From a virus (taxonomy: Duplodnaviria; Caudoviricetes): a DNA stretch of 38,094 nt. Numbering within the stretch: position 1 is the first letter of the stretch; every line of letters begins with the position of its first letter. The stretch lies in IMG/VR virus record IMGVR_UViG_3300007643_000034, positions 1-38,094 of that record; one strand, 5' to 3'. The notes below the pieces were generated by a model, which did no database searches, was not told where the DNA came from, and worked only from the letters and a program-made list of their open reading frames with translations. The position numbers were made by a program, and so were the translations under genes. This document shows, piece by piece, positions 2,010 through 37,205 of this stretch.

Positions 2010-2198
2010 TCAGGTTTTGTTTCGGTAGCCAATGAACCGGCCGCAGCGACCGCACACCGTGCGGATACGTCCGCCCGTGTTGGTGTCGACCCAGTTGCTT
2101 GGATCGCACCAAGTGCCGCAAAGGTCTTCATTAGAGTTATCGCTAGACTGTGCCACCGTGGCACAAATAGGTACGTCAAAAGTCGTAGTCGTCTCCAC
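2010..2198 (-). CDS. small Cys-rich (Zn-finger-like) protein
   Basis: C..WC...[11 protein letters not shown]; overlaps the end of the upstream gene; contains palindrome copy 1. Confidence 0.4.
2128..2156 (-). promoter_or_regulatory. phage promoter-like motif copy A
   Basis: Minus strand GTGGCACA-gtctag-CGATAACTC-TAATGA. Confidence 0.65.
2150..2164. repeat. 15-bp palindrome copy 1 (central C variant)
   Basis: GTGCCACCGTGGCAC. Confidence 0.9.
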
Positions 2199-2433
2199 CT
2201 GACGCCTCCTTTTTTTCGCCGTTCGGCTTGTCTTTGGATTTGTTTTTTTGCTTGTCCTTCGGTTTCACCGACAGAGACAGAAACTTCCCCGAACCGTTTC
2301 GGCGTTCTTTGATCCAGCCGTCGAGGTAGAACTCTTCACCGCTTATGGTGAGGCTGCCGGTGTAGTCGGCGTGATTGGGTTGTGTCTTGCGGTCGTTCTT
2401 CGAGAGAATCCCGCTGTTGTCGTACTCAGGCAT
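2176..2433 (-). CDS. small phage ssDNA-binding-like protein (DUF736-like)
   Basis: KNDRK...[22 protein letters not shown]...GKFLSLSV, with an acidic-aromatic tail DDYDF. Confidence 0.6.
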
Positions 2434-2755
2434 GGCTGTCCTCGGGGTCAGTTTCCGGGTTTGCGTCGAGTTGTGATTTGATCTCTTGGACCGTGGCGGC
2501 CAGTTGGGTGAACAGGTCTCGCGCTCGGTCGATACGCTGGTCGTTGTCGGCTGTGCGATCGGCTAGGCTCTCGACCTGGCCGGCCAACTTGCGAACGGCG
2601 GCGAACATTTTCTCTTGGCGTTCAATGTTCTTTTTGTAGTCCTCATGGATCTGGTTGAGCCTCAGACCCAGGTAGGCGATCGAGAGTTTGGCGTTGCTCT
2701 CCAATAGCTTGTCGACCTCCTCTACGCTGGCGGCGATTTGCTGCTGTCTGGTCAT
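2426..2755 (-). CDS. coiled-coil hypothetical protein
   Basis: Overlaps both neighbours; helical heptad-like composition. Confidence 0.6.
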   Translation of the reverse strand: MTRQQQIAASVEEVDKLLESNAKLSIAYLGLRLNQIHEDYKKNIERQEKMFAAVRKLAGQVESLADRTADNDQRIDRARDLFTQLAATVQEIKSQLDANPETDPEDSHA

Positions 2756-3426
2756 GGAGAAGCCTTCCCTTCGGGTTCAAGATAGAGTTCCGCAAACCGC
2801 TGCTGCGCGGCACACAGCCAGCCAGCGTCGGCAAGGTTGTAGTCGCGACCGGGAAGGCCGTCGTCGATGTAGCTTTGATCGATTTCGTATAGTCGTTCGT
2901 AAAGCTCATGTTCCATTGGCTCGCTGCCGTATTCCCAGCACTCGTTTACGAGAATCGATTGCAGCGCATCCCGTTCGCTTGGCGGCGTGTCGTCGTCCGC
3001 GATCCATTCTTGGATGTACTGCTTTGCGACTTCCCACTGCCATTCCTTCGCGAGGAACTTTGAGCAGAGGTAGGTTCCCGCCGCTCTGGAAAACCAAGCG
3101 AAGTCATAGCCGCCCGTCGACACGCATCCGTGAGGTCCGCCTATCGTCAGGTCGCCGACTAGCACCAAGTGGGCAGCAACCTGGGCGATGTTCAGGGAGT
3201 ACATTCCCGTTCCTGGTCTGCGCAAAAGCATGTGGTTGTCGTCGATTCGTTCTAGAACGTGGTCGGCTAACGCCTTAGTCATGTGCGGTTCGATGTAGTT
3301 CACGGGTTCCTCCCAGTGTTGATTAAAAACGCCGCAACCGAAGCTCGCTTTCGCGATCGCCTTAAGCCGACAATCGACATGCCTGCGGCCACTTCGGTTT
3401 GCGACTTGCGGCAACGCGCCGCTCAT
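2752..3426 (-). CDS. hypothetical phage protein
   Basis: 224-aa ORF with ATGA overlaps; protein-like composition. Confidence 0.65.
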   Translation of the reverse strand: MSGALPQVANRSGRRHVDCRLKAIAKASFGCGVFNQHWEEPVNYIEPHMTKALADHVLERIDDNHMLLRRPGTGMYSLNIAQVAAHLVLVGDLTIGGPHGCVSTGGYDFAWFSRAAGTYLCSKFLAKEWQWEVAKQYIQEWIADDDTPPSERDALQSILVNECWEYGSEPMEHELYERLYEIDQSYIDDGLPGRDYNLADAGWLCAAQQRFAELYLEPEGKASP

Positions 3427-3452
3427 TCACCGAGAAATAGAAGCCCGGCTAG

Positions 3453-3495
3453 TGGCAGGTGAGCGAATCGAACGCTCACGGAATCCAATCCTGCC
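3453..3495 (-). ncRNA. tRNA-like minihelix (acceptor stem + T arm only)
   Basis: GGCAGG-ATTGGATTCCGT-GAGCG TTCGATT CGCTC-A-CCTGCC-A; no D arm or anticodon arm. Confidence 0.55.
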
Positions 3496-3656
3496 ATGTT
3501 GCTGGACTCAACATATATCCAGCGTGGTCGCTTACAGCTTTGGCTCGACTCGCCCCCGTTGGTCTTCTCCTGCGGGATGTAGTTGGATTTGTCCCGGTGT
3601 ACTCCGGCTGCATGCCATCCCAACGCTAGGCAAGCAATCCCTTGGGATTAGTACAG

Positions 3657-3779
3657 TGGCTCCGGCAGGACTCGAACCTGCATAGATTGATCCGGCTACT
3701 CAATTCACCACTCGGAGGATCAGACCGAGAATCCTTTAGCCCTCTCGGGCACAGCGTCTACCAATTCCGCCACGGAGCC
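3657..3779 (-). tRNA. aberrant 123-nt tRNA-Leu-like element without a canonical anticodon arm
   Basis: Perfect acceptor GGCTCCG/CGGAGCC plus A73, Leu-type D arm GCG-GAATTGGTAGA-CGC and T arm GCAGG-TTCGAGT-CCTGC. The central ~70 nt do not form a 5-bp stem with a 7-nt anticodon loop. Confidence 0.7.
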
Positions 3780-4111
3780 ATGTTGCCCACTTTGCTGAGG
3801 TGTGGGCGGACCTCGTAACGCCTTTTCGGCTACGGCAGTTCATGCCGCGTAAGTGCTCTCAACAAGGGCCGCGCGGGTGCAGGGGGCGCGGCGCCCAACA
3901 TCAAACGAACCCAGAGGGGTACCGGCCACGCATTGAATAGCGAGCAAAAGCGAATGCACGCCGGTTTATGCAATTGTCGCGTTTACCCCATTCGCGATTC
4001 GTTCTTAACTCGATCTCGAATTGACACTCCCAATCACCGGCAGCGGCGAAGGCGACAATTGCGACCAGTAGAAATGCACCTGGGTTCATTCTGAATTCCC
4101 GTTTGAGTTAG

Positions 4112-4189
4112 TGGCCATCGCGAGACTCGAACCCGCGTGCGGTATCGCTATGCTCCGAGCAGCCCAATCCCGCAGAAACCTTCCTGGCC
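4112..4189 (-). ncRNA. tRNA-like element lacking a D stem
   Basis: GGCCA-GGAAGGTTTC-TGCGG...CCGCA-CGCGGG TTCGAGT CTCGCG-A-TGGCC-A. Confidence 0.55.
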
Positions 4190-4199
4190 AAATTATTTT

Positions 4200-4214
4200 G
4201 TGCCACTGTGGCAC
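4200..4214. repeat. 15-bp palindrome copy 2
   Basis: GTGCCACTGTGGCAC, 2 nt past the helicase stop. Confidence 0.95.
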
Positions 4215-4216
4215 AG

Positions 4217-5818
4217 TTAGCCACCGCTTTTAACTGTCCTCAGGTCCTTCACGTGTACGTCTTTGACTCTTCTGTGCCACTGCATGGAATTGGTCGGCAT
4301 GTTGTTCAGGTCCCTTGGCGGCCAGTAGCCGTGCGTCCGAACGAAGAACGCTTCCATTTGAGCAAACGTCTTGTTGAGACCTTTGTTCTTGTATCCCCAG
4401 TACATGTTGTCCCAGAGTCGTTGCGTGTTGCTGCGGCGCTGAACGTGCTTGCGGGGTATCAGGTCGCCGTCACGGGTCACCATGCGGCCGTCTTCCATGA
4501 TCACTTCACGGCGGCTCTTGGCGTGCTCGTATCCGCAGTGGGGACACTTGGGTCCGTGCAGTCGCTCGCCTTCGCACTTGGGACACCGGATCGGTTCGGG
4601 GGTGTCGCCGTTGCGTATTTCGTTCTCGTGCAACTGAGAAGCCACTGCGTTGCTAAGGGTCCAGAGCGTTTCCCAATCTCGATCGTGGTTGGGGGACCCG
4701 TGCCTCAGGTAATTGCCGCCGTGGTCAGTGATCAGAGCAGCGTCTTTTCCGGGCGCCGACCTTAGGCACCGGCCGACGGTCTGCAAGTAGCTGGCCAGCG
4801 AGCCAATCGGCGTGGCCAGAATCACTTGGTAGACGGAAGGCAAGTCAACGCCTTCGCGCAATTTGAATCTTGAGCTGATCCCCTTGAACGTTCCGTCTGT
4901 AACCTTCCCCAAAATGTCGTCCCACAGGTTTCGGTTGAGCGTGTATCGCTTGCCGCCAAAGTATGCGTCGGTGGCGTCAACATGCACCCAAGGGATTCCG
5001 GCCGCTTCGAACTGTTGCGTTCCCCAGACCGATTCCGGCTTGCCTGGCCAGTAGGCCATGGTTGGCCGTGCGTCTGGGTTGTACTTCTTCCAGCGATCAA
5101 TCACGTTTCCGACGATCGTCTGCGTGTAGACCTTGCGTTTCTCGGCGCCAAGATCGTATTCACCCGTGGCGGTGCGTTTGATCTTCGATAAGTCTGGTTG
5201 TTCGATTGACTTCACGACACCCGGCACCAGCAAGCCGCAATTGCGGAATTCTTTCAGTGTTCCCGACACAACTAACTTGAGGTTGTCGGTCATTTGGTGA
5301 AGGCCGATCGGCGTGGCTGAGAGCAGAACCACCTTGGCGCCGTTGCTCTTGTGGTCAGCGATGATTTGCTTCATCGTCTGACCCTTCTGTATGTGAGCTT
5401 CGTCCACGACGACTAGGCCGCAGTCGTGGCGAGGCCATACAGGATTTTCGCCGTAGACTCTCACCCGCTCAGTGTTCGCGCTGGCGATCTGAGTCGGTGC
5501 GTGAGGGTAGAACCCGTCTTCGTGATCGGCTGCGCGGATTCCAAAATCCAATCCAAGCGACGCGAACCGGTCCGAAGTCTGGGTCACCAACGCTTTCCGG
5601 TTGACGTAGAAACTGCCGCCTCCAAGCTCCTTCTCTGCCCAACGCAGCAGTTCAGTAGCCATGCGAGTTTTGCCTGAACCTGTCGGCGACTGAAGACAAA
5701 CGTCGTGGCCTGCGCGGATCAAGTTGACGACCTGCCAATAGGCTCTCTCTTGTGGAACCTTGAGTCCAGCAGCGGGTATCGCTAAGTCAGTTGTGGTAGA
5801 AGAAGTTGCGATCGTCAT
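4217..5818 (-). CDS. superfamily 2 (DEAH) helicase with C-terminal Zn finger
   Basis: SPTGSGKT Walker A, DEAH, SATP, EGVD, QTVGRCLR, CPKC/CPHC. Confidence 0.92.
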   Translation of the reverse strand: MTIATSSTTTDLAIPAAGLKVPQERAYWQVVNLIRAGHDVCLQSPTGSGKTRMATELLRWAEKELGGGSFYVNRKALVTQTSDRFASLGLDFGIRAADHEDGFYPHAPTQIASANTERVRVYGENPVWPRHDCGLVVVDEAHIQKGQTMKQIIADHKSNGAKVVLLSATPIGLHQMTDNLKLVVSGTLKEFRNCGLLVPGVVKSIEQPDLSKIKRTATGEYDLGAEKRKVYTQTIVGNVIDRWKKYNPDARPTMAYWPGKPESVWGTQQFEAAGIPWVHVDATDAYFGGKRYTLNRNLWDDILGKVTDGTFKGISSRFKLREGVDLPSVYQVILATPIGSLASYLQTVGRCLRSAPGKDAALITDHGGNYLRHGSPNHDRDWETLWTLSNAVASQLHENEIRNGDTPEPIRCPKCEGERLHGPKCPHCGYEHAKSRREVIMEDGRMVTRDGDLIPRKHVQRRSNTQRLWDNMYWGYKNKGLNKTFAQMEAFFVRTHGYWPPRDLNNMPTNSMQWHRRVKDVHVKDLRTVKSGG

Positions 5819-6765
5819 GCTTCACCGTCCTTAGAGTACGATTCACGGATCTCTTGCAGGGTGCTGCTGATTTTTCTCAGGCCTTCGTCTATGCGACGCT
5901 TCCAGTGGTTCGCCTTGATTCCGCTACCGATGCCATGATCGCCAAACACTTGATCGACAGATCGACCAAATGCGCCGCCGGCTCGCTCCGCGTTCTCGAT
6001 CAGCACCGAGGGGTCAGTTGTGACCAGCCTTGGAGGTTCAGGAAGTGGCTCTTCAGGCTTGTCAGCAGGGTCTTCGACCGGTTGAACCGGCGGTTGGTCG
6101 GTCGGCTGGACTTGAGTTTCCAGCGGAAGTGGTTCATTCTTTGGTGCGTCCTTTGCCGCTTCTTCTTTGCCTGGAAACTTCGCCTGAAGCGCGCTCGTGT
6201 CGCCATCCTTCACGGTCGCGTCGAAGAGCCTCTTCTGCTCTCGATCGCTAAGACCAGCCAAGGGCGTGACGTACTTGGCGACCTTTCCCACCGTCCGTGA
6301 TTTGATCGAGTCCTGCCACTGAGGTATGAGATTCTCAAACGACTTGGCGTAGGCGGATTGCCGGTAAACCGATCGCCTGGACTGGCCAGTTGCTTCCGCC
6401 ACCTTGCCAGCCGCGTCGCCAGTATCAGCCGTGCGATAAACCTTGAGCAGGCGACTGGCGAGCATGGATCGATCGTGGTCCAACAGGTTTCGCCTGGCCA
6501 ACTGGTTTTCCAGCATCCACGCTTCCACCGCTTGGCGATCTACAAAGCTTCGCCGTTCCACCTCAAAGGGTAGTTTGCGCCGCAGGCAGATCGCATACCG
6601 CCGGTGGCCGTCCACCAGCAGGTTTTCCTCGTCCCACACAACAATCGGTTCTTTGGCTCGTCCGAGCGAGACGATCGACTCTTCAAGTAGCTCTCGCTCA
6701 AGTTCGTTGGCTTCAGGAAGGAAATCCCGCAAGCCTTCGTCGATTGCGAATTCTGTGTCGCTCAT
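5815..6765 (-). CDS. ParB/Srx N-terminal domain protein with putative HTH
   Basis: LEESI...EPIVVW...LLVDGHRRY...ENQLARRNL, then HTH-like AAGKVAEATGQSRRSVYR. Likely ATG at 6765; the GTG at 6798 lies inside a palindrome. Confidence 0.8.
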   Translation of the reverse strand: MSDTEFAIDEGLRDFLPEANELERELLEESIVSLGRAKEPIVVWDEENLLVDGHRRYAICLRRKLPFEVERRSFVDRQAVEAWMLENQLARRNLLDHDRSMLASRLLKVYRTADTGDAAGKVAEATGQSRRSVYRQSAYAKSFENLIPQWQDSIKSRTVGKVAKYVTPLAGLSDREQKRLFDATVKDGDTSALQAKFPGKEEAAKDAPKNEPLPLETQVQPTDQPPVQPVEDPADKPEEPLPEPPRLVTTDPSVLIENAERAGGAFGRSVDQVFGDHGIGSGIKANHWKRRIDEGLRKISSTLQEIRESYSKDGEA

Positions 6766-6791
6766 GTTCTCTTCCGTGGTAATCCGCTTTG

Positions 6792-6806
6792 GTGCCACTG
6801 TGGCAC
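6792..6806. repeat. 15-bp palindrome copy 3
   Basis: GTGCCACTGTGGCAC, just upstream of the ParB-like ATG. Confidence 0.95.
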
Positions 6807-6828
6807 AAACATGACTCTGAAAAACTAA

Positions 6829-8187
6829 CTAGCTCACAATCTCAGGTTCTGGAGCGTCTGCGGAATCTTCGGGATCTTTGGCCGACCCGTCCTGAAAGAC
6901 AACCGCACACCGCGCCTCGTCGGCTTCGCTACGGGTAACCACTTCCAGCAGCATTTGGAAATCGTTCTCTTTGAGAGCATTGTCGAGAGCAGCCATGGTT
7001 TCGTTGTCCAGGTCGTTGCCGTCCTCGCAGACCAGCAGGCGAAGTTTAGGGTTGAGCGCCATGCCGACCTTTACCGAGGCCAGAACTCTCTCGGCCTTGC
7101 TGGCCTGCTCAAACGGCAGTCCGTTGAGCAGCACGCCGGATTCGTCGAGGGACATACCCGGTAACGGCCATGCGGCGTTTTCTAGTTTGCCTTGCTTCTC
7201 TTTGTCGATCGCCTCGATTCGATCGGTGAGAGACTTCGATTTCTTGCGCAGGTTTTCGACAGCCTGGAATAGTTCGGCCTTCTTTTGCTTGGCGGCGACG
7301 GCTTGGTTGATCTGATCCGCCGATCGAATCTGCTCTTCCAGGTGCGAAACGTCGATCATTGTCGCCGCTTGAGCTTCAGCGTGAAGCTTCTCTTGAGCGG
7401 TTATCTCTTCCGCCAGCGCAGGCTTGCGTTCTTCGATTTCCGCGAGACGGTCGCGAAGCTTTTCCTCTTCGGCTTCCAACTTCTCACGTTCGCTTTCGAG
7501 CCTGGCCCGTCCTTCCTTCTGTCGCGTCAGGTTGTGGCTTACTTCGCTGTTCGCGGCCTTGGCTCTCTCAAGCTGCTCGAACAGTTCCCCGGCGTTCACC
7601 GGCGTGTCTGGGGTGTCTGGCGGGACAGTCACGGCGTCGAGTTGAGCCTTCGTCGCTTTGCCTTCGCTGTTGATCCGGGTGCGTTCGCTGTACTTCTCTT
7701 TCCGTTCTTCGTCCAAGGGGGTGAAGTCCAGGCCAACTAGGTCGCGCAGCAGTGCGTCGCGATCCTTCGGCTTCGCTCGCTCGAAATCCAGAGGATCGAA
7801 CGCACGCATTTGATACAACTGCTGCAACAGCGTCCGAGGTTCTGGCGACTCTTCGCCGGTTGAGTCGAGTACGCGGATCTCGTCAACGATCTGGCCGTTT
7901 CGCTTGCGTTTGAGGAACAGTTCCACGGTGAAGCCAACGGAATCGTGAAGTTCGTCGTCCCCAGACAGGTTGACGCGAACCCAGCCTTCTTTCTCGCCTT
8001 CCTTCAAGGCGACGTCTGGCCATTCCATGCCGCGTTTGCCGCATAGAGCCATCAGCAGTGCTTTCAGTGCGGACGACTTTCCCTGGCCGTTGGCGCCGCC
8101 GACCAGCACAAGGTTGGCACCGTCCATGCTGAGGTCGACGTCGGCGATCCGCAGAACATTGCGGACGGTGTAGGACAAGATTTTCAT
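6829..8187 (-). CDS. SMC/Rad50-like ATPase
   Basis: GANGQGKSS Walker A, central coiled coil, ASKAE signature and LLVCED Walker B-like motif. Confidence 0.85.
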   Translation of the reverse strand: MKILSYTVRNVLRIADVDLSMDGANLVLVGGANGQGKSSALKALLMALCGKRGMEWPDVALKEGEKEGWVRVNLSGDDELHDSVGFTVELFLKRKRNGQIVDEIRVLDSTGEESPEPRTLLQQLYQMRAFDPLDFERAKPKDRDALLRDLVGLDFTPLDEERKEKYSERTRINSEGKATKAQLDAVTVPPDTPDTPVNAGELFEQLERAKAANSEVSHNLTRQKEGRARLESEREKLEAEEEKLRDRLAEIEERKPALAEEITAQEKLHAEAQAATMIDVSHLEEQIRSADQINQAVAAKQKKAELFQAVENLRKKSKSLTDRIEAIDKEKQGKLENAAWPLPGMSLDESGVLLNGLPFEQASKAERVLASVKVGMALNPKLRLLVCEDGNDLDNETMAALDNALKENDFQMLLEVVTRSEADEARCAVVFQDGSAKDPEDSADAPEPEIVS

Positions 8188-8233: not shown

Positions 8234-8248
8234 GTGCCACTGTGGCAC
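8234..8248. repeat. 15-bp palindrome copy 4
   Basis: GTGCCACTGTGGCAC, intergenic. Confidence 0.95.
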
Positions 8249-8277: not shown

Positions 8278-8910
8278 CTATCCGACCCGCAATTCGGCTT
8301 CGCGCTGGGCGATCTCTTCCATCAGGTCGCGTCCCTGTTCGGCCTCAATGGTCTCGTCGGCGACCATTTCCTCAGTCTTCTCGCGTAGCTCTTCGAGCCG
8401 TTCCAGGCTGTCGGCGGTGCGGATACGACCGGCAGCGACCCGCATAAACTGGTCGCGTTTGCCGTACTTCACCCCCGCGCCTTTGACGTACTGTTCGTCC
8501 TCAAATTTCCCCATGAAAACGTCGGCAGAGAAACCAAGGTAGGACAGAGCTTTGCTGCGAGCGCTGGTGAGAAGCTTCTTGCAGCAGTCGTCGCCGTGGC
8601 GAAACTTGGCGTCGACGGTGATCTCAAAGGACGCCGTCGGATAGAAGAACTCGGCGCTGAGCATCATGGTCATTACACCGTCGTGATCCAACTGTCCCCA
8701 GCTGATCTTACGCAACCCCCAGCGAAAGCCGTACGGTCCCCACAGTTCGGTGGCTTTTTGAAGTTGGTACTGCGGATCAACGCACGTGAATTTGTACCGG
8801 CCGTTGGTTGTATCTTTGGTGTACTTCGGATCGGTTGACTGCACCCTCTTCCAGAGAGCCATGTTGGATTCTGGTTCCGTCTGCACAACATTGTTAGCTT
8901 TAATCGACAT
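8278..8910 (-). CDS. Sak/Rad52-like single-strand annealing protein
   Basis: ATELWGPYGFRWG...KKLLTSARSKALSYLGFSADVFMG; adjacent to an exonuclease gene. Confidence 0.65.
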   Translation of the reverse strand: MSIKANNVVQTEPESNMALWKRVQSTDPKYTKDTTNGRYKFTCVDPQYQLQKATELWGPYGFRWGLRKISWGQLDHDGVMTMMLSAEFFYPTASFEITVDAKFRHGDDCCKKLLTSARSKALSYLGFSADVFMGKFEDEQYVKGAGVKYGKRDQFMRVAAGRIRTADSLERLEELREKTEEMVADETIEAEQGRDLMEEIAQREAELRVG

Positions 8911-9130
8911 TGCTTGCCTCGCATGTTACGGGGGTTATGGTCCGGGGTGCGCCGGGTAGATATTTAATCGCACCTTTCCGGCTGAGCGCTTCGATATGGC
9001 ACTTGGCGCCAGCGGGACTGGCGAAGTCGAACCGCTTGCAGATCTCTCGCAGGGTAGGTGAGAATCCGTGTTCGCCGCGGAACTCGACGATAAAATCCAG
9101 TACCTCTTGTTGGCGTTCGGTGAGTGTCAT
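8900..9130 (-). CDS. stand-alone LexA DNA-binding domain protein
   Basis: LTERQQEVLDFI...GFSPTLREIC..F...SP.....HIEALSRKGAI...PGAPRTI; no peptidase domain. Confidence 0.88.
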   Translation of the reverse strand: MTLTERQQEVLDFIVEFRGEHGFSPTLREICKRFDFASPAGAKCHIEALSRKGAIKYLPGAPRTITPVTCEASNVD

Positions 9131-9816: not shown

Positions 9817-9845
9817 ACACTAGAGTTATCCAAGCGGTGTGCCAC
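9817..9845 (-). promoter_or_regulatory. phage promoter-like motif copy B
   Basis: GTGGCACA-ccgctt-GGATAACTC-TAGTGT, pointing at the exonuclease operon. Confidence 0.7.
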
Positions 9846-9866
9846 GTTGTGCCAAAAAGAACAAAA

Positions 9867-9895
9867 TTGGCACACTCACTCGATAACCCTAATGT
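9867..9895 (+). promoter_or_regulatory. phage promoter-like motif copy C
   Basis: TTGGCACA-ctcact-CGATAACCC-TAATGT, divergent from copy B. Confidence 0.7.
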
Positions 9896-9902: not shown

Positions 9903-9917
9903 GTGCCACTGTGGCAC
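9903..9917. repeat. 15-bp palindrome copy 5
   Basis: GTGCCACTGTGGCAC at the predicted TSS of motif C. Confidence 0.95.
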
Positions 9918-13753: not shown

Positions 13754-13782
13754 TTGACTAGCGAAAGGGAACCTGACACAAT
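13754..13782 (+). promoter_or_regulatory. sigma70-type promoter for the sigma-like gene
   Basis: TTGACT-N17-CACAAT with TGn extension. Confidence 0.55.
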
Positions 13783-13797: not shown

Positions 13798-13812
13798 GTG
13801 CCACAGTGGCAC
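13798..13812. repeat. 15-bp palindrome copy 6
   Basis: GTGCCACAGTGGCAC just downstream of the promoter. Confidence 0.95.
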
Positions 13813-13872
13813 ACATAAAACCAGCGAGGCCCGTCAACCCTCGCTTAGCTTGTGTTCCGGGAGAACTTTCTT

Positions 13873-14358
13873 ATGCGTAATTCTGAATCTTCAGTCAATT
13901 CCTCTGAGTTGTACGTTCGCGTTCGCCGCTGCCTCTTAGGCCGTGTCCGCCGCCTTAGTCTTTCGTTTCAGCCTGCCGACATTGAAGATCTAACCCAAGA
14001 ATCGCTCTGCAAGACTCTCTTGGCCATGCAGCGAAACGAATACACGCAGCATGGCCTAAAGTCTTTGGTCTGGCTAACAGTGAGAAGTTCACTTGCTGAC
14101 TGGATTGATACCCAAGTCAACGAACCTGGAATCGTACGCGGAGAAGGTCAACTGATCACCAAAACAATTCGCGTCAACGCATGTGAGCTTCCTAAACGGG
14201 TGCTCGATCTGGCAGGCGACCTGGCGCCCGTCGCAGTCGAGCTATCCAAGGGAATGTCCAAACAGGCCACTGCGGACTCGCTAGGCTGCTCTCGTCGTAC
14301 GATCTACCGGCAGATCGATCGCCTGCGCGAGAGACTGAAGCCTTTGGCTCGGGTTTAA
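13873..14358 (+). CDS. ECF sigma-factor-like transcriptional regulator
   Basis: Region-2-like DIEDLTQE...WLTVRSSLADW and region-4 HTH GMSKQATADSLGCSRRTIYRQIDRLR; located just before the late operon. Confidence 0.7.
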   Translation: MRNSESSVNSSELYVRVRRCLLGRVRRLSLSFQPADIEDLTQESLCKTLLAMQRNEYTQHGLKSLVWLTVRSSLADWIDTQVNEPGIVRGEGQLITKTIRVNACELPKRVLDLAGDLAPVAVELSKGMSKQATADSLGCSRRTIYRQIDRLRERLKPLARV

Positions 14359-14360
14359 GT

Positions 14361-14375
14361 GTGCCACTGTGGCAC
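14361..14375. repeat. 15-bp palindrome copy 7
   Basis: GTGCCACTGTGGCAC, 2 nt after the stop. Confidence 0.95.
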
Positions 14376-14607: not shown

Positions 14608-14622
14608 GTGCCACAGTGGCAC
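14608..14622. repeat. 15-bp palindrome copy 8
   Basis: GTGCCACAGTGGCAC. Confidence 0.95.
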
Positions 14623-19219: not shown

Positions 19220-21052
19220 ATGAGCGAACACAACGCCATGCAGGTGATTTCCGAAGCGATCAACGCGGTCACCCAGGATTCTCTCAATGAGTCTTGGGGC
19301 GACTTGGTGGACCGCCGTGAATATCTCTACGACACGCCAGGCTTTGGCGTTGGCGGCGGTCCCGTTTCGATTCTGTCCGATCGTTTGGACGGCAAGGATA
19401 CTCGATTATTTGAGAACGAACACGAGCTCGCCATTACTCGCGGGATCGGCCAGTTCCTGGTTGCGGAATTCCCCAGCGCGATCAATATCTTAGAGTCGCT
19501 CACCAACTACACGATCGGCACAGGGTACACCTACGAGGCGCAGGCAGAGAGCGACGACACGCCACTAGGCTTGGCCGACGCGGTACAGAAGGTGGTCGAC
19601 GTCTTCATTGAGGATAACGACTTCGCTTGCGATCTGGAAAGGGAGATCCACGAGCGAAGCCGAGAAGACGGGGAATCGGCCGTCGCTCTTCTTCCCAACG
19701 GCTGGAAAACTCAAGCTCAAATTGTTGAGTCGGCGGCGATCACGGAGCCAGCGAACACGCGACAACTTGAGGACTGGCTTGGTCTCGACGGCTACGCTTC
19801 GTCCTGGTCGTTCGGCGTCCACTCACCGGCCAACGATCCTTCCCGGCCAATCGGCTACCACGTCGTGCGAGACGAGACCGGCCGCGATTGGGACTACTAC
19901 CCGGCGGAAGACGTCGGAATCGCACACAGGGCTCGCAGCGGATTGCTGGAGCACTTCAAACGCAGCCGTCGCAACGTGAAGCGCGGCGTGAGCGAGTATT
20001 ACCAAGTCCGCAAATTCCTTAACCACGCAGACGGCCTCTTAGAGAACTCAGCACACGGCGCCAAGATCCAAGCGGCGATCGCCTATATCGTCGAGCACAG
20101 TGCAAATTACACCAAGACTCAGGTAGCCAACCACGTTGCCGGCCAAGCCACTTCCAAGCGTGTCGAGACGCCGCAGACCGGTCCTAAGACGTACCAAGAG
20201 CAGCGATTCCGACCCGGGAAAGTAGTCCACACCCCCAACGGCACGGTCTACAAGCCGGCGCCAATGGGAAGCAGCAACGCACCCAACTTCATCATTATCG
20301 AACAGGCTCTCTTGAGGTACGCCGGCCTGCGTTGGTCGATGCCGGAATACATGGTCAGCGGGGATGCGTCCAACGCGAACTACTCGTCAACTCTGGTCGC
20401 CGAATCCCCTTTTGTGAAGTCTCGCGAAGCCGACCAAATGTTCTACGTCTCACGCTTCCGCCGCATGATGTGGAAGGTGATCAAGATCGCTCACGCCGCT
20501 GGTTTCTTCGACAAGTTCGGCGTGACGTTCGACCAACTGATGCGGCTCATTCGATTGGCGGTCACACCGCCGGAAGTCGCCACCCGCAACAAGTACGAAG
20601 ACGCACAGACCAAAGAGATTGAGAAACGCAACGGCGTGCTGTCGGCCAAAACCTGGGCCAAGGAGACAAACCGGGACTACGACGAAGAACTGGAAAACGG
20701 CGTCGCTGACGAGAGTGCCACAGTGGCACAAGGCTCGAAAGGACATGACGAGCCGATACCCGGTGTCCCCACGCAGCCAACCGGCGAGTTTGGCGACCTG
20801 TCCCGTATGCAACTCAAACGGAACCGCAAGGCGATCAACGACGTACTCGGCGAACTGCAATCCAGCGACATTACGGCGGCCAGAGCGGTCGAAGAGTTGA
20901 CCATGCTCGGGATTGAGCCAGGCCGTGCGGAGAGACTCGTAGCCGACACCCAGGACGCCGACGGTCCAACCGAACCGGAGATCGCCGCGGCGTTGGAATC
21001 CATTCAAACACTTGGCGAAGCCAAAGACTTTCTGGCGGAGGTGTACCCGTAA
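19220..21052 (+). CDS. portal protein (lambda-like)
   Basis: Position after TerL; RSREDGE, RGVS and GDASNANYSS motifs. Confidence 0.85.
   Translation: MSEHNAMQVISEAINAVTQDSLNESWGDLVDRREYLYDTPGFGVGGGPVSILSDRLDGKDTRLFENEHELAITRGIGQFLVAEFPSAINILESLTNYTIGTGYTYEAQAESDDTPLGLADAVQKVVDVFIEDNDFACDLEREIHERSREDGESAVALLPNGWKTQAQIVESAAITEPANTRQLEDWLGLDGYASSWSFGVHSPANDPSRPIGYHVVRDETGRDWDYYPAEDVGIAHRARSGLLEHFKRSRRNVKRGVSEYYQVRKFLNHADGLLENSAHGAKIQAAIAYIVEHSANYTKTQVANHVAGQATSKRVETPQTGPKTYQEQRFRPGKVVHTPNGTVYKPAPMGSSNAPNFIIIEQALLRYAGLRWSMPEYMVSGDASNANYSSTLVAESPFVKSREADQMFYVSRFRRMMWKVIKIAHAAGFFDKFGVTFDQLMRLIRLAVTPPEVATRNKYEDAQTKEIEKRNGVLSAKTWAKETNRDYDEELENGVADESATVAQGSKGHDEPIPGVPTQPTGEFGDLSRMQLKRNRKAINDVLGELQSSDITAARAVEELTMLGIEPGRAERLVADTQDADGPTEPEIAAALESIQTLGEAKDFLAEVYP
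20715..20729. repeat. 15-bp palindrome copy 9 (inside portal CDS)
   Basis: GTGCCACAGTGGCAC, encoding SATVAQ. Confidence 0.95.
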
Positions 21053-22900: not shown

Positions 22901-22915
22901 GTGCCACAGTGGCAC
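22901..22915. repeat. 15-bp palindrome copy 10
   Basis: GTGCCACAGTGGCAC, intergenic. Confidence 0.95.
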
Positions 22916-25603: not shown

Positions 25604-25618
25604 GTGCCACAGTGGCAC
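25604..25618. repeat. 15-bp palindrome copy 11
   Basis: GTGCCACAGTGGCAC, intergenic. Confidence 0.95.
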
Positions 25619-27802: not shown

Positions 27803-28108
27803 ATGAGCAAAGAAGCCAACGAAGCCAAAACGCAGAAATCACCCAAGCCAAAACCAGACCCCGACGTGATCGCCAACGAATATCACGGCTGCAAGATAAC
27901 CAGCCACCTGCGCACCGGTGAGCATGTCGTCTCAAGAGACGATCAGGATACGCGGGGGTTCACCACACTGGCCGACGCGATTTACTTTGCTCGGCATGGA
28001 CGGGTGCGACCTGCGGAAGAGAAACAGGATCCAAAGTCGGCTAAGAAGCCAGTGAAGAAGAAGGCCGCCAAGCCGGCCAAGAAAAGTGCCACAGTGGCAC
28101 AAAATTAA
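27803..28108 (+). CDS. hypothetical protein with Lys/Ala-rich tail
   Basis: In operon; ends KKSATVAQN across a palindrome. Confidence 0.6.
   Translation: MSKEANEAKTQKSPKPKPDPDVIANEYHGCKITSHLRTGEHVVSRDDQDTRGFTTLADAIYFARHGRVRPAEEKQDPKSAKKPVKKKAAKPAKKSATVAQN
28086..28100. repeat. 15-bp palindrome copy 12
   Basis: GTGCCACAGTGGCAC at the 3' end of a CDS. Confidence 0.95.
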
Positions 28109-29096: not shown

Positions 29097-29111
29097 GTGC
29101 CACTGTGGCAC
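29097..29111. repeat. 15-bp palindrome copy 13
   Basis: GTGCCACTGTGGCAC, intergenic. Confidence 0.95.
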
Positions 29112-32105: not shown

Positions 32106-32362
32106 TCAATTCCGCCTTTTTGCTTTATCAAGTCCCGGAGAGACTCCTTCATCTTCCTGAGTTCGCTTTCCTCTTCCTCAATGTACGCAAGATCCGAGTC
32201 GCTGTTACTGATTCTCCTGAACGTAGCGAGTTGATCCTCTTTCTTCTCGATGTCCAGTTCAAGAATGCGTATTTCCGCTTCGATTTGATCCTGTCTGCTC
32301 GGCCCGCAGCCGCCAGATGTCATGGCGAGAATCCCAGCTATAGCCAATAGTAACCATTTCAT
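32102..32362 (-). CDS. small lipoprotein (coiled coil)
   Basis: MKWLLLAIAGILAMTSGGC lipobox-like signal; ATGA overlap with the upstream gene. Confidence 0.65.
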   Translation of the reverse strand: MKWLLLAIAGILAMTSGGCGPSRQDQIEAEIRILELDIEKKEDQLATFRRISNSDSDLAYIEEEESELRKMKESLRDLIKQKGGID

Positions 32363-33459
32363 TCTTGCACCTCGCCTTCGCTCTGAACGCCTTGAGGCGA
32401 AGAGCTTTCGTAAAATTTCGGCGCCGACCTGATTTCGTCAGCAAAGCTGTAAATGTCGTCGAGAGAAGCGATAGCGTGCCGAGTTACCTGTTTGTTTTCG
32501 TCGAACAGCCCCAGGTACTTTTTCGAGGAATTAAAGTACATCCGGCATATCGGCTTGCGGTTGTTATCGTCCAAAAGGACGCCGCAATAGCTCTGCGTGT
32601 CGCGCATAAAGACGCGATCTGGTGACACGGCCTCTCGCAAGATCGACTTGATAATGTAGAAGCCTTCAATTTCTTCGTCCGTAGTTTCGATCAAGCTTTC
32701 TTCGCTGGCTGGCTCCGTTTCCTCTTCCTTAACCCGCACATCGGACGAGGGGTCCAAGACAGTTTTCAGCCGCTTATTGATCTGGTCACTTACGAAGAGG
32801 TGCAGTGCTCGCTTGGTCAAGCCGCCAAACTGCTCCAGGACGGATTGGGTGATTCGGCCAGAGTAAAGCCGGCTGGAGAAAATGCGTATGAATTCGTCAG
32901 ATGGGTTGACCCACTCCTCAGCGAGGATGCGTTTAATTCCCTTGACGTATTTCAGTTCGTTCGCAGTCGAGAGGATGTTGTCGAGGTCAAAAGCATCCTT
33001 GGAGAACTTCTTCAACTCGTTGGCTACTGCGTCGGTGATTTGAAGCAGGCTGAACTCAAAAAATGGAAGCTTGTCCATTTTGTTAGGCTGCTCCAGGTCC
33101 GTGAAGAATCGGAAATCGACTCCGTTTGTCAGCACGCCAAACCTAGCTTCGGTGACCGTGAAGTAGCGGAATAACTGCGAGGCGTGCTCTCGCTCTAGGT
33201 TAGCGCCGAGTTTCTTGCACTCGATAAGGATCATCGGATTTCCGCGAATCTTTATCGCGTAGTCAACCTTCTCGCCCTTTTTTACGCCCACATCGGCAGT
33301 CAGTTCAGGGACCACTTCCAGAGGGTCAAACACGTTGTAGCCAAGCGAGTTGATGAACGGCATTATCAACGCGTTCTTGGTGGCTTCTTCCGTTTCGAGG
33401 TGTCCTTCAAGTTGCGGAATTTTCGAGGACAGATCCCTCAGTCGGTCGATTAGGTCCAT
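32359..33459 (-). CDS. stand-alone HsdR N-terminal (type I restriction-like PD-(D/E)xK) domain protein
   Basis: TEEATKNALIMPFINSLGYNVFDP.EVVPE...GEKVDYAI...LIECK...QLFRYF...LTNG. Confidence 0.88.
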   Translation of the reverse strand: MDLIDRLRDLSSKIPQLEGHLETEEATKNALIMPFINSLGYNVFDPLEVVPELTADVGVKKGEKVDYAIKIRGNPMILIECKKLGANLEREHASQLFRYFTVTEARFGVLTNGVDFRFFTDLEQPNKMDKLPFFEFSLLQITDAVANELKKFSKDAFDLDNILSTANELKYVKGIKRILAEEWVNPSDEFIRIFSSRLYSGRITQSVLEQFGGLTKRALHLFVSDQINKRLKTVLDPSSDVRVKEEETEPASEESLIETTDEEIEGFYIIKSILREAVSPDRVFMRDTQSYCGVLLDDNNRKPICRMYFNSSKKYLGLFDENKQVTRHAIASLDDIYSFADEIRSAPKFYESSSPQGVQSEGEVQE

Positions 33460-33496
33460 GCTTTGTTGCCCTTAAGAGAGGAAAGTAAGGGAACCT

Positions 33497-33526
33497 ATTT
33501 TAACCACCTGGGTGAGGTGCTCGCAA
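33497..33526 (-). promoter_or_regulatory. sigma70-type promoter for the HsdR_N gene
   Basis: TTGCGA-N18-TAAAAT. Confidence 0.45.
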
Positions 33527-33543
33527 CAATCAAATGCGAGCGC

Positions 33544-33577
33544 AAAAAAAAGGCCGTCTCGGCAGAAGAGACGGCCT
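33544..33577 (-). terminator. intrinsic terminator
   Basis: AGGCCGTCTC-loop-GAGACGGCCT followed by a T run on the minus strand. Confidence 0.85.
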
Positions 33578-33690
33578 AAAATCTTGTAACCCACGACGAA
33601 TCGTGAGTTGCCGGGATGGTGATTGAATTCGGCAGCAACGAATTCAACCTACTTCACTAGGAGTCAGTGTAGGTTTCACAGACTATACTG

Positions 33691-33719
33691 AGCATAGTGT
33701 ACGTATTCGGTCTGGTCAA
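33691..33719 (-). promoter_or_regulatory. sigma70-type promoter of a putative sRNA
   Basis: TTGACC-N17-TATGCT. Confidence 0.65.
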
Positions 33720-33736
33720 CTGCCAATCTTTAACAC

Positions 33737-33973
33737 TTATGCATCTTTGAAGTTTGAAGACTCGAATTTCAAGCTGCAGTGATGGCAGGTAACGGTTTCC
33801 GGCTGCATAACGAAATCCCCGTGCTCCCACGGCTGAATGCCGTGATCTTCACGAAGCTCCGTGGTCTCTTCGGACGAAAATTCACGCACGACAGCACGAG
33901 AAAAATTTTCTCGGTCGCACTCTGGACAGTCCCAGGAAAACGCTGGCCTAAGTTCCACCATTTTTGCGTTCAC
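33737..33973 (-). CDS. Zn-ribbon protein
   Basis: WDCPEC...VTCHHC. Confidence 0.65.
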   Translation of the reverse strand: MNAKMVELRPAFSWDCPECDRENFSRAVVREFSSEETTELREDHGIQPWEHGDFVMQPETVTCHHCSLKFESSNFKDA

Positions 33974-34096
33974 TTTCTACCGGAATTTTTGTACACTGGA
34001 CGGCGGTTGAGGGCTGATACCACGCTAGTTCTCGCAGCAAGAGAACCAGCACTCTCTAAATTCAGCCCATGTAGGTTTTATAGGAGGTTTAGCCCC

Positions 34097-34267
34097 ATGG
34101 CTAAATCGAAGAACAATGGTGGTGCGACACCACCGGGTGACGGTTACGAGTACATTTTTGTCGCATACATCACTCTCCGAAATGGAAAGCGATTGTATGC
34201 ATGGCAGAAAGGTCTCAAAGCGTTCCGAATTCGGGTTAAGAAAGGGGGTCGGCAGAAGGGCTCTTAA
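34097..34267 (+). CDS. small basic protein (56 aa)
   Basis: AGGAGG RBS at 34082; MAKSKNNGG...YIFVAYITLRNGKRLYAWQKGLKAFRIRVKK. Confidence 0.7.
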   Translation: MAKSKNNGGATPPGDGYEYIFVAYITLRNGKRLYAWQKGLKAFRIRVKKGGRQKGS

Positions 34268-34429
34268 TCCGAAATGAGCTGATCGTCCTGTCGGGTCTTG
34301 TTCCGGCAGGGCGATTTTTACTTTAGTCGAGCGATATGTCTGTTGCAAGGATTTGGATGATACAATTTTCTTTGTCTCAAGCCAACATCAATGTCGTTAG
34401 TCAAACCGTTGAGTAACGATTCAAGCGAG

Positions 34430-34675
34430 TTATCGCATTCGCTGGTACCACTCTAGAGCCGCTTCCGCTCGATCCCGGCGTTCGCGAGCGGCAACGAGGT
34501 CCATGAACCTCTCTGCGCTGTCGCCCCCTTGGTGCTCGACTGAGGTGACCCAGGACGCCTCGGTGCTGGCTTCCTCTGAGAGACAGTCGGCTACGTGTTG
34601 GGTGAGAGCTTCCCGGTGGTCGGTGGTGGGGCCGGCGCCGAGGATCGAGAGTAGGACGAGAATGAGGTGCAACAT
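34430..34675 (-). CDS. small exported protein
   Basis: Hydrophobic N-terminus; starts 8 nt after the upstream stop. Confidence 0.55.
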   Translation of the reverse strand: MLHLILVLLSILGAGPTTDHREALTQHVADCLSEEASTEASWVTSVEHQGGDSAERFMDLVAARERRDRAEAALEWYQRMR

Positions 34676-34683
34676 GGTTTTTC

Positions 34684-35109
34684 TTACTTGCTTCTAGCAA
34701 AACCGATTGCAGCGAGGATTCCGCCTCCGAAGAAAATCAGACCCGGAAGGACGATCACAAGCAGCCACATTGCCACGGGGTGCGCCTGAGACATCGATTT
34801 GCCGTCGGACTCAATGAAGTCCTTCGCCATGCAAGCGATCGTTGGTCCCAGTCCAGCAATGAACGTACCCACGGCCGCGTGAACACCAGGTCTCGCCCAA
34901 ACTGGAGGCTGCTTCTTAACCAGACCCGATTCCTTTAACACCCGGTGAGCGTCCTCGACATGCGGAACAAGCACCATTTCGGCGTTCTTCGATCGAGCAA
35001 TTTCTTCCGCCACAGTGGACAGGCTGTCCGAGAACTGTTCAGCAATTTCTTCGGCGCAGGCTAAGGCTTCGCTGCTTTGTGGAATTGAAGAGCGTTCATT
35101 CGGCGCCAC
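34684..35109 (-). CDS. histone-fold-like protein with two C-terminal transmembrane helices
   Basis: SSEALACAEEIAEQFSDSLSTVAEEIARSKNAEMVLVPHVEDAHRVL fits the histone alpha2-L2-alpha3 pattern; two hydrophobic segments follow. Confidence 0.6.
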   Translation of the reverse strand: MAPNERSSIPQSSEALACAEEIAEQFSDSLSTVAEEIARSKNAEMVLVPHVEDAHRVLKESGLVKKQPPVWARPGVHAAVGTFIAGLGPTIACMAKDFIESDGKSMSQAHPVAMWLLVIVLPGLIFFGGGILAAIGFARSK

Positions 35110-35422
35110 GACAGTCCTCTGCGAAGACCTGACAGAACGTCTGCAGTTCTAGCATTGCTTGCTTCTGATCGTCGCTCAGGTGCGGCGTACAATCTTGCAG
35201 TTGCTTGAGACTTTGGCAAAGCGTTTCCGCGGCATCGGCAATGTCGCAACTGTCCACGAGCGGCATGCCGCTTGGTGTGCGCCCGGCGGTGTTCTTCGCA
35301 GCCATCCTCAAGATAGTCTCTGAGAACTCACCAGACATCTCACGCAACAACGCACTTGCGTTGCGTTCGATAGCGAATTGAGGGGTTGCGTTGTCTGTCG
35401 CCACTTTGATCTCCCGCCGCAT
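35096..35422 (-). CDS. soluble histone-fold-like protein
   Basis: IERNASALLREMSGEFSETILRMAAKNT...LVDSCDIADAAETL; the true start may be GTG at 35404 after GGGAG. Confidence 0.55.
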   Translation of the reverse strand: MRREIKVATDNATPQFAIERNASALLREMSGEFSETILRMAAKNTAGRTPSGMPLVDSCDIADAAETLCQSLKQLQDCTPHLSDDQKQAMLELQTFCQVFAEDCRGAE

Positions 35423-35651
35423 CCATGCCGGTTACATTGCCCATCAGCATTATTCTTCGGCTGCTTAGGGGTGTCAACTGGACCAAACCCTGCACCCATT
35501 TGACGTTACCGATACGTTGGGTTGGTCTTGCTAGCAGGCCGCTAGCAAGTCGAATAGAAAAGAAACGCCGTCCGCAGGCCTTGGTTGTTAGTTTCCCACG
35601 GAAACAGTTTTACCCACGGACGGCGCTAAGTCATTCTAGTCGCTGCCAACT

Positions 35652-36038
35652 TCACGCAGTAGGCGCCACGTGCATTGCCAGCTTGGTTACCACCAACTGG
35701 TTCAGCGAAACCCCTTCTGCTTCCGCTTCACTCACCAGAGCTTTATGAAGCGATTTGGCCATGCGGACATGAAGCGAGCCGCTGTACTCTCGTTTGGCCT
35801 CGCCAGCGTCGTTCAGCATTGGCTCAGCCTCTTCTAGCTCTCGGACGATCTTCCAGACGGCTTCGTATTCCTCCGTCTTGGCGAACGCTACACGCGAAGA
35901 CTTCGTAGGGAACAGTTCAGCGGACTTTCCAGTAGGTCCAAAGATCGCGTTGTTGGCTTGAACGTAGTTCGCTCCACCGTCGCGCAGCGATTCGGCAAAG
36001 CGAAGCACCTGTACGGCGCGGTACCTGATAGTTGCCAT
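35652..36038 (-). CDS. HicB-family-like protein with C-terminal ribbon-helix-helix
   Basis: YSGSLHVRMAKSLHKALVSEAEAEGVSLNQLVVTKLA; likely ATG at 36038. Confidence 0.75.
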   Translation of the reverse strand: MATIRYRAVQVLRFAESLRDGGANYVQANNAIFGPTGKSAELFPTKSSRVAFAKTEEYEAVWKIVRELEEAEPMLNDAGEAKREYSGSLHVRMAKSLHKALVSEAEAEGVSLNQLVVTKLAMHVAPTA

Positions 36039-36127
36039 AGTGTCTTGTTCCTCGGGTAGAGTGTTTATGAACAGCAACCGGCCGGGGGCGAGTCTTGCCG
36101 CCCCCGGCTTGGATTGCTTTGCGTCGC

Positions 36128-36442
36128 TTAGTCGGTGTCGATGATCTCAACCCCGTCAGCGTATCGCACTTCAAAGTACATTGCCTTTTGGGAAAGACGC
36201 TTTCCCGCCCAGACAACGAACTCCCGGGCTTCCGTCAGTCGCGCCGTGTCGCAGAAGATTTCCAAGCCGTAGCTGGCTTCTGAGTACACGCGACCGTCAT
36301 CGTCCCGCCACGATCCCTGATCTGGACCAGACAGGGTGTAACCGCCGAACTTGACTTGCGCCTCGCGAAGAACTTCCTCGCGACGTTCTGCGGTCGACTC
36401 GCCCTCGTTATCGTGGGTAACAAGGCGAGTGATGAACAACAT
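36128..36442 (-). CDS. small ferredoxin-like-fold protein (DUF3574 / phage SAM-lyase-like pattern)
   Basis: GGAGG RBS; FGGYT....GSW....G.VYSEAS...RLSQKAMY. Confidence 0.55.
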   Translation of the reverse strand: MLFITRLVTHDNEGESTAERREEVLREAQVKFGGYTLSGPDQGSWRDDDGRVYSEASYGLEIFCDTARLTEAREFVVWAGKRLSQKAMYFEVRYADGVEIIDTD

Positions 36443-36467
36443 GGCACCTCCCGTGGGTTAAAGGAAC

Positions 36468-36515
36468 TAACAACCAAGTAGTTGTTATGGTAGTATATTC
36501 GGTACCAGTCGTCAA
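36468..36515 (-). promoter_or_regulatory. sigma70-type promoter with overlapping inverted-repeat operator
   Basis: TTGACG-N17-TACCAT (36515-36487) and TAACAAC-N6-GTTGTTA (36468-36487). Confidence 0.6.
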
Positions 36516-36575
36516 GTCTTAGAAACTACTTCGGGTTTATTTCAATTTTCTTTTTTCGGTCCGCAGGTCAGGTGA

Positions 36576-36590
36576 GTGCCACTGTGGCAC
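36576..36590. repeat. 15-bp palindrome copy 14
   Basis: GTGCCACTGTGGCAC. Confidence 0.95.
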
Positions 36591-36948
36591 AAACTTCCTT
36601 GTCTCTAAAAGAAAGGAATCAACAGCCGCATGAGAGGGAACGACGCACCGGCCAGTAGAGAGCGAAGCGGAGCGTCTTGGGTCAATCCGGCAGCGGATAG
36701 TCGAAAGAGCACCAACGCGAACCCGGACCGCGCAGTGCCCCCCTCCCGCACCGCTGTAAGCCGCAACACCGTCTGTGGACGGTCCCTCGCTACCGGGAAA
36801 GAATTTGAGCCTTTGAGGGACTCACAATCAGAGATCACACCCCGGATCGTTCGTCGCAGCTTTTGCCCTCGAGAGCGGGGGCTTTGGTCCCCTGGGCACG
36901 GTACTGCGACCGTTTAACCGTTTTGCACGTTTTGAGGTGCTATAAATT

Positions 36949-36963
36949 GTGCCACAGTGGCAC
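36949..36963. repeat. 15-bp palindrome copy 15
   Basis: GTGCCACAGTGGCAC. Confidence 0.95.
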
Positions 36964-36973
36964 AGTCACGCCG

Positions 36974-37060
36974 AAATAGAAAACGCCTCTCGGTGGCCGA
37001 TTAAGCTGCCAAGCAAAAAGAAGAGCCAACCGAGAGGCGAAGTGTTTTGGTGCTTGGCAG
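36974..37060 (-). ncRNA. putative ~85-nt pseudoknot/attenuator RNA ending in a terminator
   Basis: Two interleaved inverted repeats (11 and 10 bp) and a T-rich tail, directly downstream of motif copy E. Confidence 0.5.
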
Positions 37061-37064
37061 AGCG

Positions 37065-37093
37065 TCAGTAGTGTTATCGAAACAGTGTGCCAC
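37065..37093 (-). promoter_or_regulatory. phage promoter-like motif copy E
   Basis: GTGGCACA-ctgttt-CGATAACAC-TACTGA. Confidence 0.65.
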
Positions 37094-37112
37094 ATCCTTG
37101 GAAAACTTGATA

Positions 37113-37127
37113 GTGCCACAGTGGCAC
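37113..37127. repeat. 15-bp palindrome copy 16
   Basis: GTGCCACAGTGGCAC. Confidence 0.95.
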
Positions 37128-37190
37128 TTCAATTCCTTCCGCAGACTGCTAAGATACCAGGGGGACCGGTATATCTGCGTCCTGGGATTT

Positions 37191-37205
37191 GTGCCACAGT
37201 GGCAT
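37191..37205. repeat. 15-bp palindrome copy 17 (one mismatch)
   Basis: GTGCCACAGTGGCAT. Confidence 0.9.

Follow-up and report, generated by a model that had tools for sequence, protein, structure and literature searches.

Cluster O mycobacteriophages carry a 17-bp dyad repeat throughout their genomes whose function is unknown (PMC4351075). The authors of that report name Corndog gp90 as one of three candidates, doubt a role in genome stability, and draw no contrast by gene presence. Here, we describe a comparable array in a linear virus contig from an uncultured phage (Duplodnaviria; Caudoviricetes), IMG/VR record IMGVR_UViG_3300007643_000034. This whole stretch of 38,094 nt, referred to below as the window, contains 17 copies of the palindrome GTGCCACWGTGGCAC together with a gene for a ParB-like protein, which is probably their reader. 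The Cluster O repeat is the closest published case. Both arrays combine invariant arms with an odd, variable centre, lie genome-wide in and between genes, are mostly off promoters, are absent from the host (here, from a sample of the phylum), and accompany a protein with a ParB-like domain (gp90 in Corndog) but no parAB. The word and the host phylum differ, and no Cluster O record is found among the 20 tblastn matches listed for the ParB-like protein.

KorB and the OB operators of plasmid RK2 likewise pair a ParB-family fold with dispersed palindromic sites that have an odd-length core and possibly act over long range, whereas KorB is part of a partition system and its best-understood repression needs KorA (PMC11790492, PMC3597684); no ParA was found here. 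Chromosomal ParB–parS and Noc–NBS (Noc-binding site) share with the window the nucleotide-binding plus helix-turn-helix (HTH) architecture, the GxxR motif, and a residue equivalent to R173 that varies with the outer base (PMC7383237, PMC12704722); Noc is also an orphan ParB with dispersed sites (PMC12704722). Their sites are even and 16 bp long, in contrast to the odd 15-bp sites here, and the phage protein has neither a ParA-binding motif nor a Pfam ParB_N or NCBIfam match. Temperate mycobacteriophages of the RedRock type also encode a ParB that acts on repeated sites, but in them parA is present and two loci of clustered direct repeats border the cassette (PMC7157519). The stoperators of Cluster A mycobacteriophages, although numerous and dispersed in each phage genome, are asymmetric and oriented with transcription (PMC4351075), unlike the present palindromes, in which only the centre base is biased. 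The window combines dispersed palindromic operators with a ParB-fold protein that would bind them, as in KorB–OB, and its sites are not clustered as in a parABS centromere. By analogy, the system would work like KorB–OB or Noc–NBS and is not a member of parABS. The literature covered, which included few subscription papers, yielded neither an account of this clade nor a phage in which an orphan-ParB grid had been tested.

The array is genuine and specific to the phage, and most of its palindromes lie between genes (Table 1). The 15-letter word occurs in 15 exact copies in the window and in none of 100 shuffles. With any centre base and up to two mismatches allowed, 17 copies were found (chance mean 0.24, maximum 2); none has two mismatches, and a single additional match appeared at three. 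The 7-bp arms are perfect in 16 of the 17 copies, the site at 2150 differing by its C centre and that at 37191 by one change, and all 17 coordinates given in an earlier first-pass annotation of this sequence proved right. That annotation also described T/A-rich flanks extending the site; the 5-bp flanks are indeed 77% A/T, but the full TGT...ACA 17-mer is present in only six of the 17 copies. Gaps between sites are random-like (coefficient of variation 0.94), which rules out regular spacing. Of the 13 sites that are unambiguous, 11 have A as the centre base on the sense strand (p 0.02). Although ~88% of the window codes, 14 sites are clearly intergenic, as had been noted for most copies; site 2150 straddles a predicted start, and 20715 and 28086 lie in genes. 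Additional TGTGCCA half-sites are located in both divergent control regions (window 9838-9877 and 37086). An exact-word scan of viral contigs returned 44 stretches, each with at most three exact copies. An unrelated low-GC phage contig, G025 (L272-L273):18603-22943, has four copies of the window word within 4.3 kb, two of them exact and two with one change, and no ParB-like match.

Part of the evidence for a reader is the distribution of sites among relatives. Relatives were gathered without recourse to the motif; the entry points were the ParB-like gene, the gene for an SMC-like ATPase, and a small conserved gene (1279-1758). Counts of TG[A/C]C-N5-G[T/G]CA were then compared with a third-order Markov expectation at p<0.005, a threshold chosen after the data had been seen. 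Sites were enriched in 13 of the 18 clade records with a ParB-like gene and in two of the 24 without it (42 records, counted after seven rows had been dropped: six duplicates or near-duplicates of counted records and G026, a 100-kb host stretch that was negative). Among records of at least 40 kb, the corresponding counts were 8 of 11 and 1 of 12. A second batch, fetched once the word was fixed, is a cleaner test than the full 42-record count. It comprised 26 new records, of which 16 were taken whole and chosen by gene status blind to sites, eight were taken as loci, and two were not analysed; enrichment was found in six of seven records with the gene and one of nine without (p 0.009). In an all-against-all protein clustering, the ParB-like family ranked first, being present in 14 of 15 site-positive records (including G007 and G729, both below the later threshold) and one of 11 negative ones, and no other protein family tracked the sites. 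The records are distinct at the DNA level apart from two pairs, and carriers and non-carriers interleave on the marker tree, for example, G745 and G750 against G751 and G742 in one starred clade. An obligatory link between the sites and the SMC-like ATPase was rejected: six site- or gene-bearing records lack the ATPase, and several site-free ones have it.

The ParB-like protein is predicted to adopt a ParB fold, with an N-terminal domain followed by an HTH. Its parts are a nucleotide-binding domain (DGHRR), an HTH domain (helix SRRSVYRQ), an acidic linker, and a C-terminal helical pair. In an AlphaFold model (predicted local distance difference test score 85), residues 1-198 match ParB/Spo0J (Foldseek E 2e-5). 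The model aligns with Caulobacter crescentus ParB at Z 11.8 (root-mean-square deviation 4.5, 175 residues aligned) and matches Spo0J, ParB, Noc, and KorB over both the nucleotide-binding and DNA-binding domains (Z 9.9 to 8qa9, KorB). Neither Pfam, ParB_N included, nor NCBIfam names the protein as ParB, and its PHROGs match to ParB is weak. Among the 20 tblastn records listed, none covers 80% of it, and no close relative from cultured phages was found. Box II (GxxR) is present in 19 of 19 proteins, the DGHRR of the window aligning with AGERR of M. xanthus ParB. The ParA-binding motif [LFI]G[KR]G[LFI], as defined in PMC12704722, occurs in none of the 19 proteins, and ParA (PF13614) in none of 15 records, nine of which are at least 90% complete (control, 14 of 14; the window record itself is ~75% complete). 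The protein is therefore an orphan ParB-fold protein; the nucleotide used by such a fold is not predictable from sequence (PMC12704722). The first-pass term "parS-like" stands as a resemblance, but without ParA or its binding motif, and with odd-length, dispersed sites, it does not extend further.

An unbiased palindrome scan of gene carriers recovered sister words: GTGACAC-N-GTGTCAC in L167, GTGACA-N3-TGTCAC in G017, CTGAC-N5-GTCAG in G015, and ACTGACA-N3-TGTCAGT in G007. The words of the window and L167 differ at one base pair per arm. Motif alignment with printed ParB sequences placed R130 of the window protein at R173 of C. crescentus ParB, which reads base 1 of parS (PMC7383237). Where the equivalent residue is Glu, the outer base is mostly C in seven of eight records, against one of nine with other residues; five of those nine, the window among them, have mostly outer G. 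The outer base therefore partly tracks the residue, as the first-pass annotation had proposed to check, although the p value of 0.003 is overstated because the rows are related. In the ParB tree, the window protein groups with those of G001 and G009 (Shimodaira–Hasegawa-like approximate likelihood ratio test 92, unstarred), and none of the three genomes uses the common TGAC word: G009 (L253-L256) has 18 copies of TGWAACGTTWCA and G001 has three of GTCTACCATGGTAGAC. The arms in G009 vary independently (A/A 7, T/A 4, A/T 4, T/T 3), as expected for protein half-sites. G009 contains two different ParB-like genes, and some of its TGWAACGTTWCA copies are placed like window sites, before the SMC-like gene.

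Several observations weigh against the ParB-like protein as reader. The nearest row to the window on the marker tree, G726 (L484-L487), is a 70.7-kb and apparently complete circle (its first ~131 bases recur at the end) with 10 TGAC-N5-GTCA sites against 1.3 expected, and hidden Markov model (HMM), Pfam, and tblastn searches found no ParB-like gene in it. G726 is thus the single instance of what the first-pass annotation had said would refute the ParB link, a relative that keeps the sites and lacks the gene. One of its sites lies 8 bp past the SMC-like stop, where the ParB-like genes of relatives begin; this placement fits a recent loss of the gene but is no proof of it. A search of G726 for a hidden reader (Pfam on 58 open reading frames [ORFs], domain HMMs, the helix pattern, and tblastn) left as sole candidates an HTH_3-like gene and, beside one site, an HTH-like gene without a name; the HTH genes of G726 are at 11687-11908 and 12626-12898. 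An incomplete record, L427/G747 (35% complete), has four sites and no gene, and in the syntenic prophage of G026, which encodes a divergent ParB-like protein, sites are not enriched (3 versus 2.1). A dispersed palindrome of any kind was found in only 11 of 135 loci of at least 9 kb, many with more distant ParB-like genes. The exact word of the window is in no relative, including G001 and G009, its nearest ParB relatives with DNA; each of these encodes a second candidate reader, so their words cannot be assigned. The residue rule is broken by G748, where Glu goes with a mixed outer base, and by G729, where Lys goes with an outer C. The Glu-Asn of Box III (ENxxR), the motif for hydrolysis, is present in the window as ENQLARR but absent from the other 18 of the 19 proteins. 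Finally, a tree-corrected test was not significant; with only three independent pairs on starred branches, it is underpowered and cannot reach significance.

Two further observations concern these genomes. In G726, the small HTH-like gene at 12626-12898 is immediately preceded by a site. Within the 100-kb G026 stretch (G026:C5), CGTGACAC-N3-GTGTCACG occurs twice, ~3.9 kb apart, near the syntenic Pirellulaceae prophage module; 11 stretches with ParB-like matches from ten genomes of the order Pirellulales had no comparable word, one of them having a repeat like the repetitive extragenic palindromic type.

With the predicted fold, the gene–site association, and the partial helix–base co-variation on one side and the sites of G726 on the other, we consider the ParB-like protein, which the first-pass annotation had favoured, the probable reader of the 17 sites. 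It would bind the palindromes as a dimer through its HTH, and its place just before the helicase suggests expression together with the replication genes. Nucleotide-gated loading and sliding of a clamp may follow, as in ParB, Noc, and KorB. We tentatively propose that the main purpose is a docking grid, in which the bound protein would mark the phage chromosome and organise it while it replicates, rather than promoter-by-promoter control. The first-pass annotation had placed sites just after promoters, a rule that finds no support here. Of 13 promoter-like matches listed (12 distinct, about chance level), only that at 13754-13782 directly precedes a site. A −10 element at sigma70 distance follows 4.1% of 320 half-sites from 14 genomes, against 4.0% of controls, which rules out half-sites as −35 elements. 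In G015, G745, and G750, most sites are inside genes. Given these intragenic sites and the lack of a promoter link, density seems to matter more than position.

The same protein could instead serve mainly in KorB- or stoperator-like repression, its clamp loading at the sites and blocking or dampening transcription, including that of its own operon; we regard this as unlikely. Several sites do lie 26-68 bp ahead of a start codon, four are clustered in one divergent non-coding region, and, in seven records, no more than 60 bp separates a site from the start or stop of the SMC-like gene. KorB silences from distal operators (PMC11790492), and the sense-strand bias of the centre base would also fit. 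This reading has to contend with the lack of a −10 link, the many sites in 60-90-bp gaps within co-directional operons, the mostly intragenic sites of three relatives, and the place of the ParB-like gene in a replication operon outside any immunity region. No KorA-like partner turned up, although no dedicated KorA search was made. Genome-wide silencing, as suggested in the first-pass annotation, is neither shown nor favoured by promoter position.

It is also doubtful that another phage protein is the reader, be it the sigma-like HTH protein, a small HTH protein, or a product encoded in the quarter of the genome that the record lacks, with the ParB-like gene merely co-travelling. Such a reader would account for the sites of G726, and the incompleteness of the window record leaves room for it; the helix of the sigma-like protein is almost identical, and sites flank its gene on both sides. 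The ParB-like family is nevertheless the only one to track the sites, and the G726 site past the SMC-like stop fits gene loss. A homologue of the sigma-like protein was found only in G009. The LexA DNA-binding-domain protein and the 55-aa winged-HTH protein, both earlier proposed as alternatives, have none at E<0.01 in the relatives with sister sites.

A role for the ParB-like protein as a dispersed-site replication factor, which would attach to the sites and bring in the adjacent helicase to initiate or restart replication, appears improbable. In 18 of 18 records, the helicase follows its gene at a distance of at most 2.6 kb, and in 11 of at most ~170 bp, often with an overlap, but adjacency is weak evidence. 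In relatives without it, another, unrelated HTH gene often occupies this slot. Two such genes (G019:66742-67527 and G732:61246-62085) have an even 16-bp palindrome just past their own helix that is also dispersed genome-wide (seven copies in G019, five in G732). These slot genes are putatively DUF3102-like and of presumed kinship; the Pfam DUF3102 cut-off is passed only by the slot gene of L155. The identical 15-mer of the window and one-base variants are clustered tightly inside HTH_36 initiator-like genes of unrelated viruses (Table 1), where they are probably origin iterons. Of six such proteins tested, four pass the Pfam cut-off, and their helices are mostly R[TS]VxR. These clusters support the reading of this word by an HTH of this type, although the helix is common and is present in site-free G742. 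No iteron origin of the HTH_36 type was found here: the window sites occur singly and without an evident unwinding element, and PF13730 exceeds its cut-off in none of 15 records. We likewise give little credence to a broader version, in which the slot before the helicase would be interchangeable between a ParB-like clamp and unrelated HTH proteins, each filler would rewrite the genome with its own palindrome, and the protein would load the helicase at numerous dispersed sites, so that a ParB clamp would form the basis of replication starts at multiple sites.

That the word is a host repeat, a host-protein site, or an RNA hairpin is very unlikely and already largely refuted. The host repeat, a possibility raised in the first-pass annotation, is contradicted by one copy each in two of 301 Planctomycetota genomes (control word, also two; the host was sampled by phylum) and by the absence of the sister word CTGACAANTTGTCAG from 61 genomes of the order of G026. 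The arms could form a 6-bp stem with a 3-base loop and the centre base is biased, but in G009, matched and mismatched arm pairs occur equally often. A parS centromere of a plasmid prophage is the least probable account: a ParB fold and the failure to detect an integrase in five complete site-bearing relatives would suit it, but all 15 records lack ParA, all 19 proteins lack its binding motif, and the sites are dispersed instead of clustered.

Table 1. Palindromic sites and candidate genes of the window, and clusters of the same 15-mer in other viruses (L-numbered loci).
Feature	Coordinates	Strand	Remark
Site 1	2150..2164		C centre; straddles predicted start of small Cys-rich ORF
Site 2	4200..4214		2 bp past helicase stop
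Site 3	6792..6806		22 bp past SMC-like stop, 26 bp ahead of ParB-like ATG
Site 4	8234..8248		gap upstream of SMC-like gene
Half-sites	9838..9874		three additional TGTGCCA half-sites (9838, 9848, 9868) adjoining site 5
Site 5	9903..9917		divergent control region
Site 6	13798..13812		15 bp past promoter-like match, upstream of sigma-like gene
Site 7	14361..14375		2 bp past sigma-like stop
Site 8	14608..14622		intergenic
Site 9	20715..20729		within portal gene, unconserved linker just past part conserved in nearest portal relative
Site 10	22901..22915		short gap, head operon
Site 11	25604..25618		short gap, head operon
Site 12	28086..28100		last codons (3′ end) of ORF 27803-28108
Site 13	29097..29111		18 bp past tail tube stop
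Site 14	36576..36590		divergent non-coding region
Site 15	36949..36963		same divergent non-coding region as site 14
Site 16	37113..37127		same divergent region as site 14; additional half-site at 37086
Site 17	37191..37205		one change; 29 bp ahead of next ATG
SF2 helicase	4217..5818	-	start overlaps ParB-like stop
Orphan ParB-like protein	5815..6765	-	316 aa; candidate reader
Short SMC/Rad50-like ATPase	6829..8187	-	between sites 3 and 4
LexA DNA-binding-domain protein	8900..9130	-	weak rival reader
Sigma-70-like protein	13852..14358	+	helix SRRTIYRQ; rival reader
15-mer cluster	L002:6368-6483		in HTH_36-like gene
15-mer cluster	L038:6666-6725		in HTH_36-like gene
15-mer cluster	L039:3746-3793		in HTH_36-like gene
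15-mer cluster	L035:3553-3621		in HTH_36-like gene
15-mer cluster	L021:10001-10123		in HTH_36-like gene
15-mer cluster	L034:114-309		in HTH_36-like gene
15-mer cluster	L020:5258-5337		in HTH_36-like gene

The window comprises a leftward recombination–replication operon (YqaJ, the LexA DNA-binding-domain protein, an unnamed recombination-module gene, the SMC/Rad50-like ATPase, the ParB-like protein, SF2 helicase, and SSB) and a morphogenesis arm that runs rightward. A pentapeptide-repeat membrane-protein gene (window 17232-19106, minus strand) is inserted in reverse between terminase and portal, and the tail module is split by a reverse-strand island (window 32102-36442, minus strand) that encodes an HSDR_N endonuclease (32359-33459) and a HicB-domain protein (35652-36038). 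The first-pass annotation saw no site in the former or in the coding part of the latter, which is correct but carries no information, since coding DNA is avoided by the sites in general. The closest morphogenesis modules (L045 and L046; capsid ~51% identical) are without sites, and capsid relatives at 42-51% identity have no such sites; the arm may thus have acquired its sites once it had been combined with the replication module. In bacterial genomes, a single close SMC-like relative was found, the syntenic prophage in a Pirellulaceae metagenome-assembled genome (G026), and the phage host is therefore probably a planctomycete of the Pirellulaceae.

When dispersed palindromes in phage genomes were reported in 2015, no reader was known, and, to our knowledge, most phage orphan ParB proteins have no known target or role. 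New here are a clade of probable planctomycete phages, a gene-presence contrast with an out-of-sample check, a partial tracking of base by residue, and a putatively interchangeable reader slot. The clade provides natural protein–site pairs that differ at single positions, as well as relatives with and without the gene, so that the reader could be tested in vitro with synthesised genes, although the clade yielded no cultured member. If the proposed docking grid is true, ParB clamps would extend beyond partition into the organisation of phage chromosomes.

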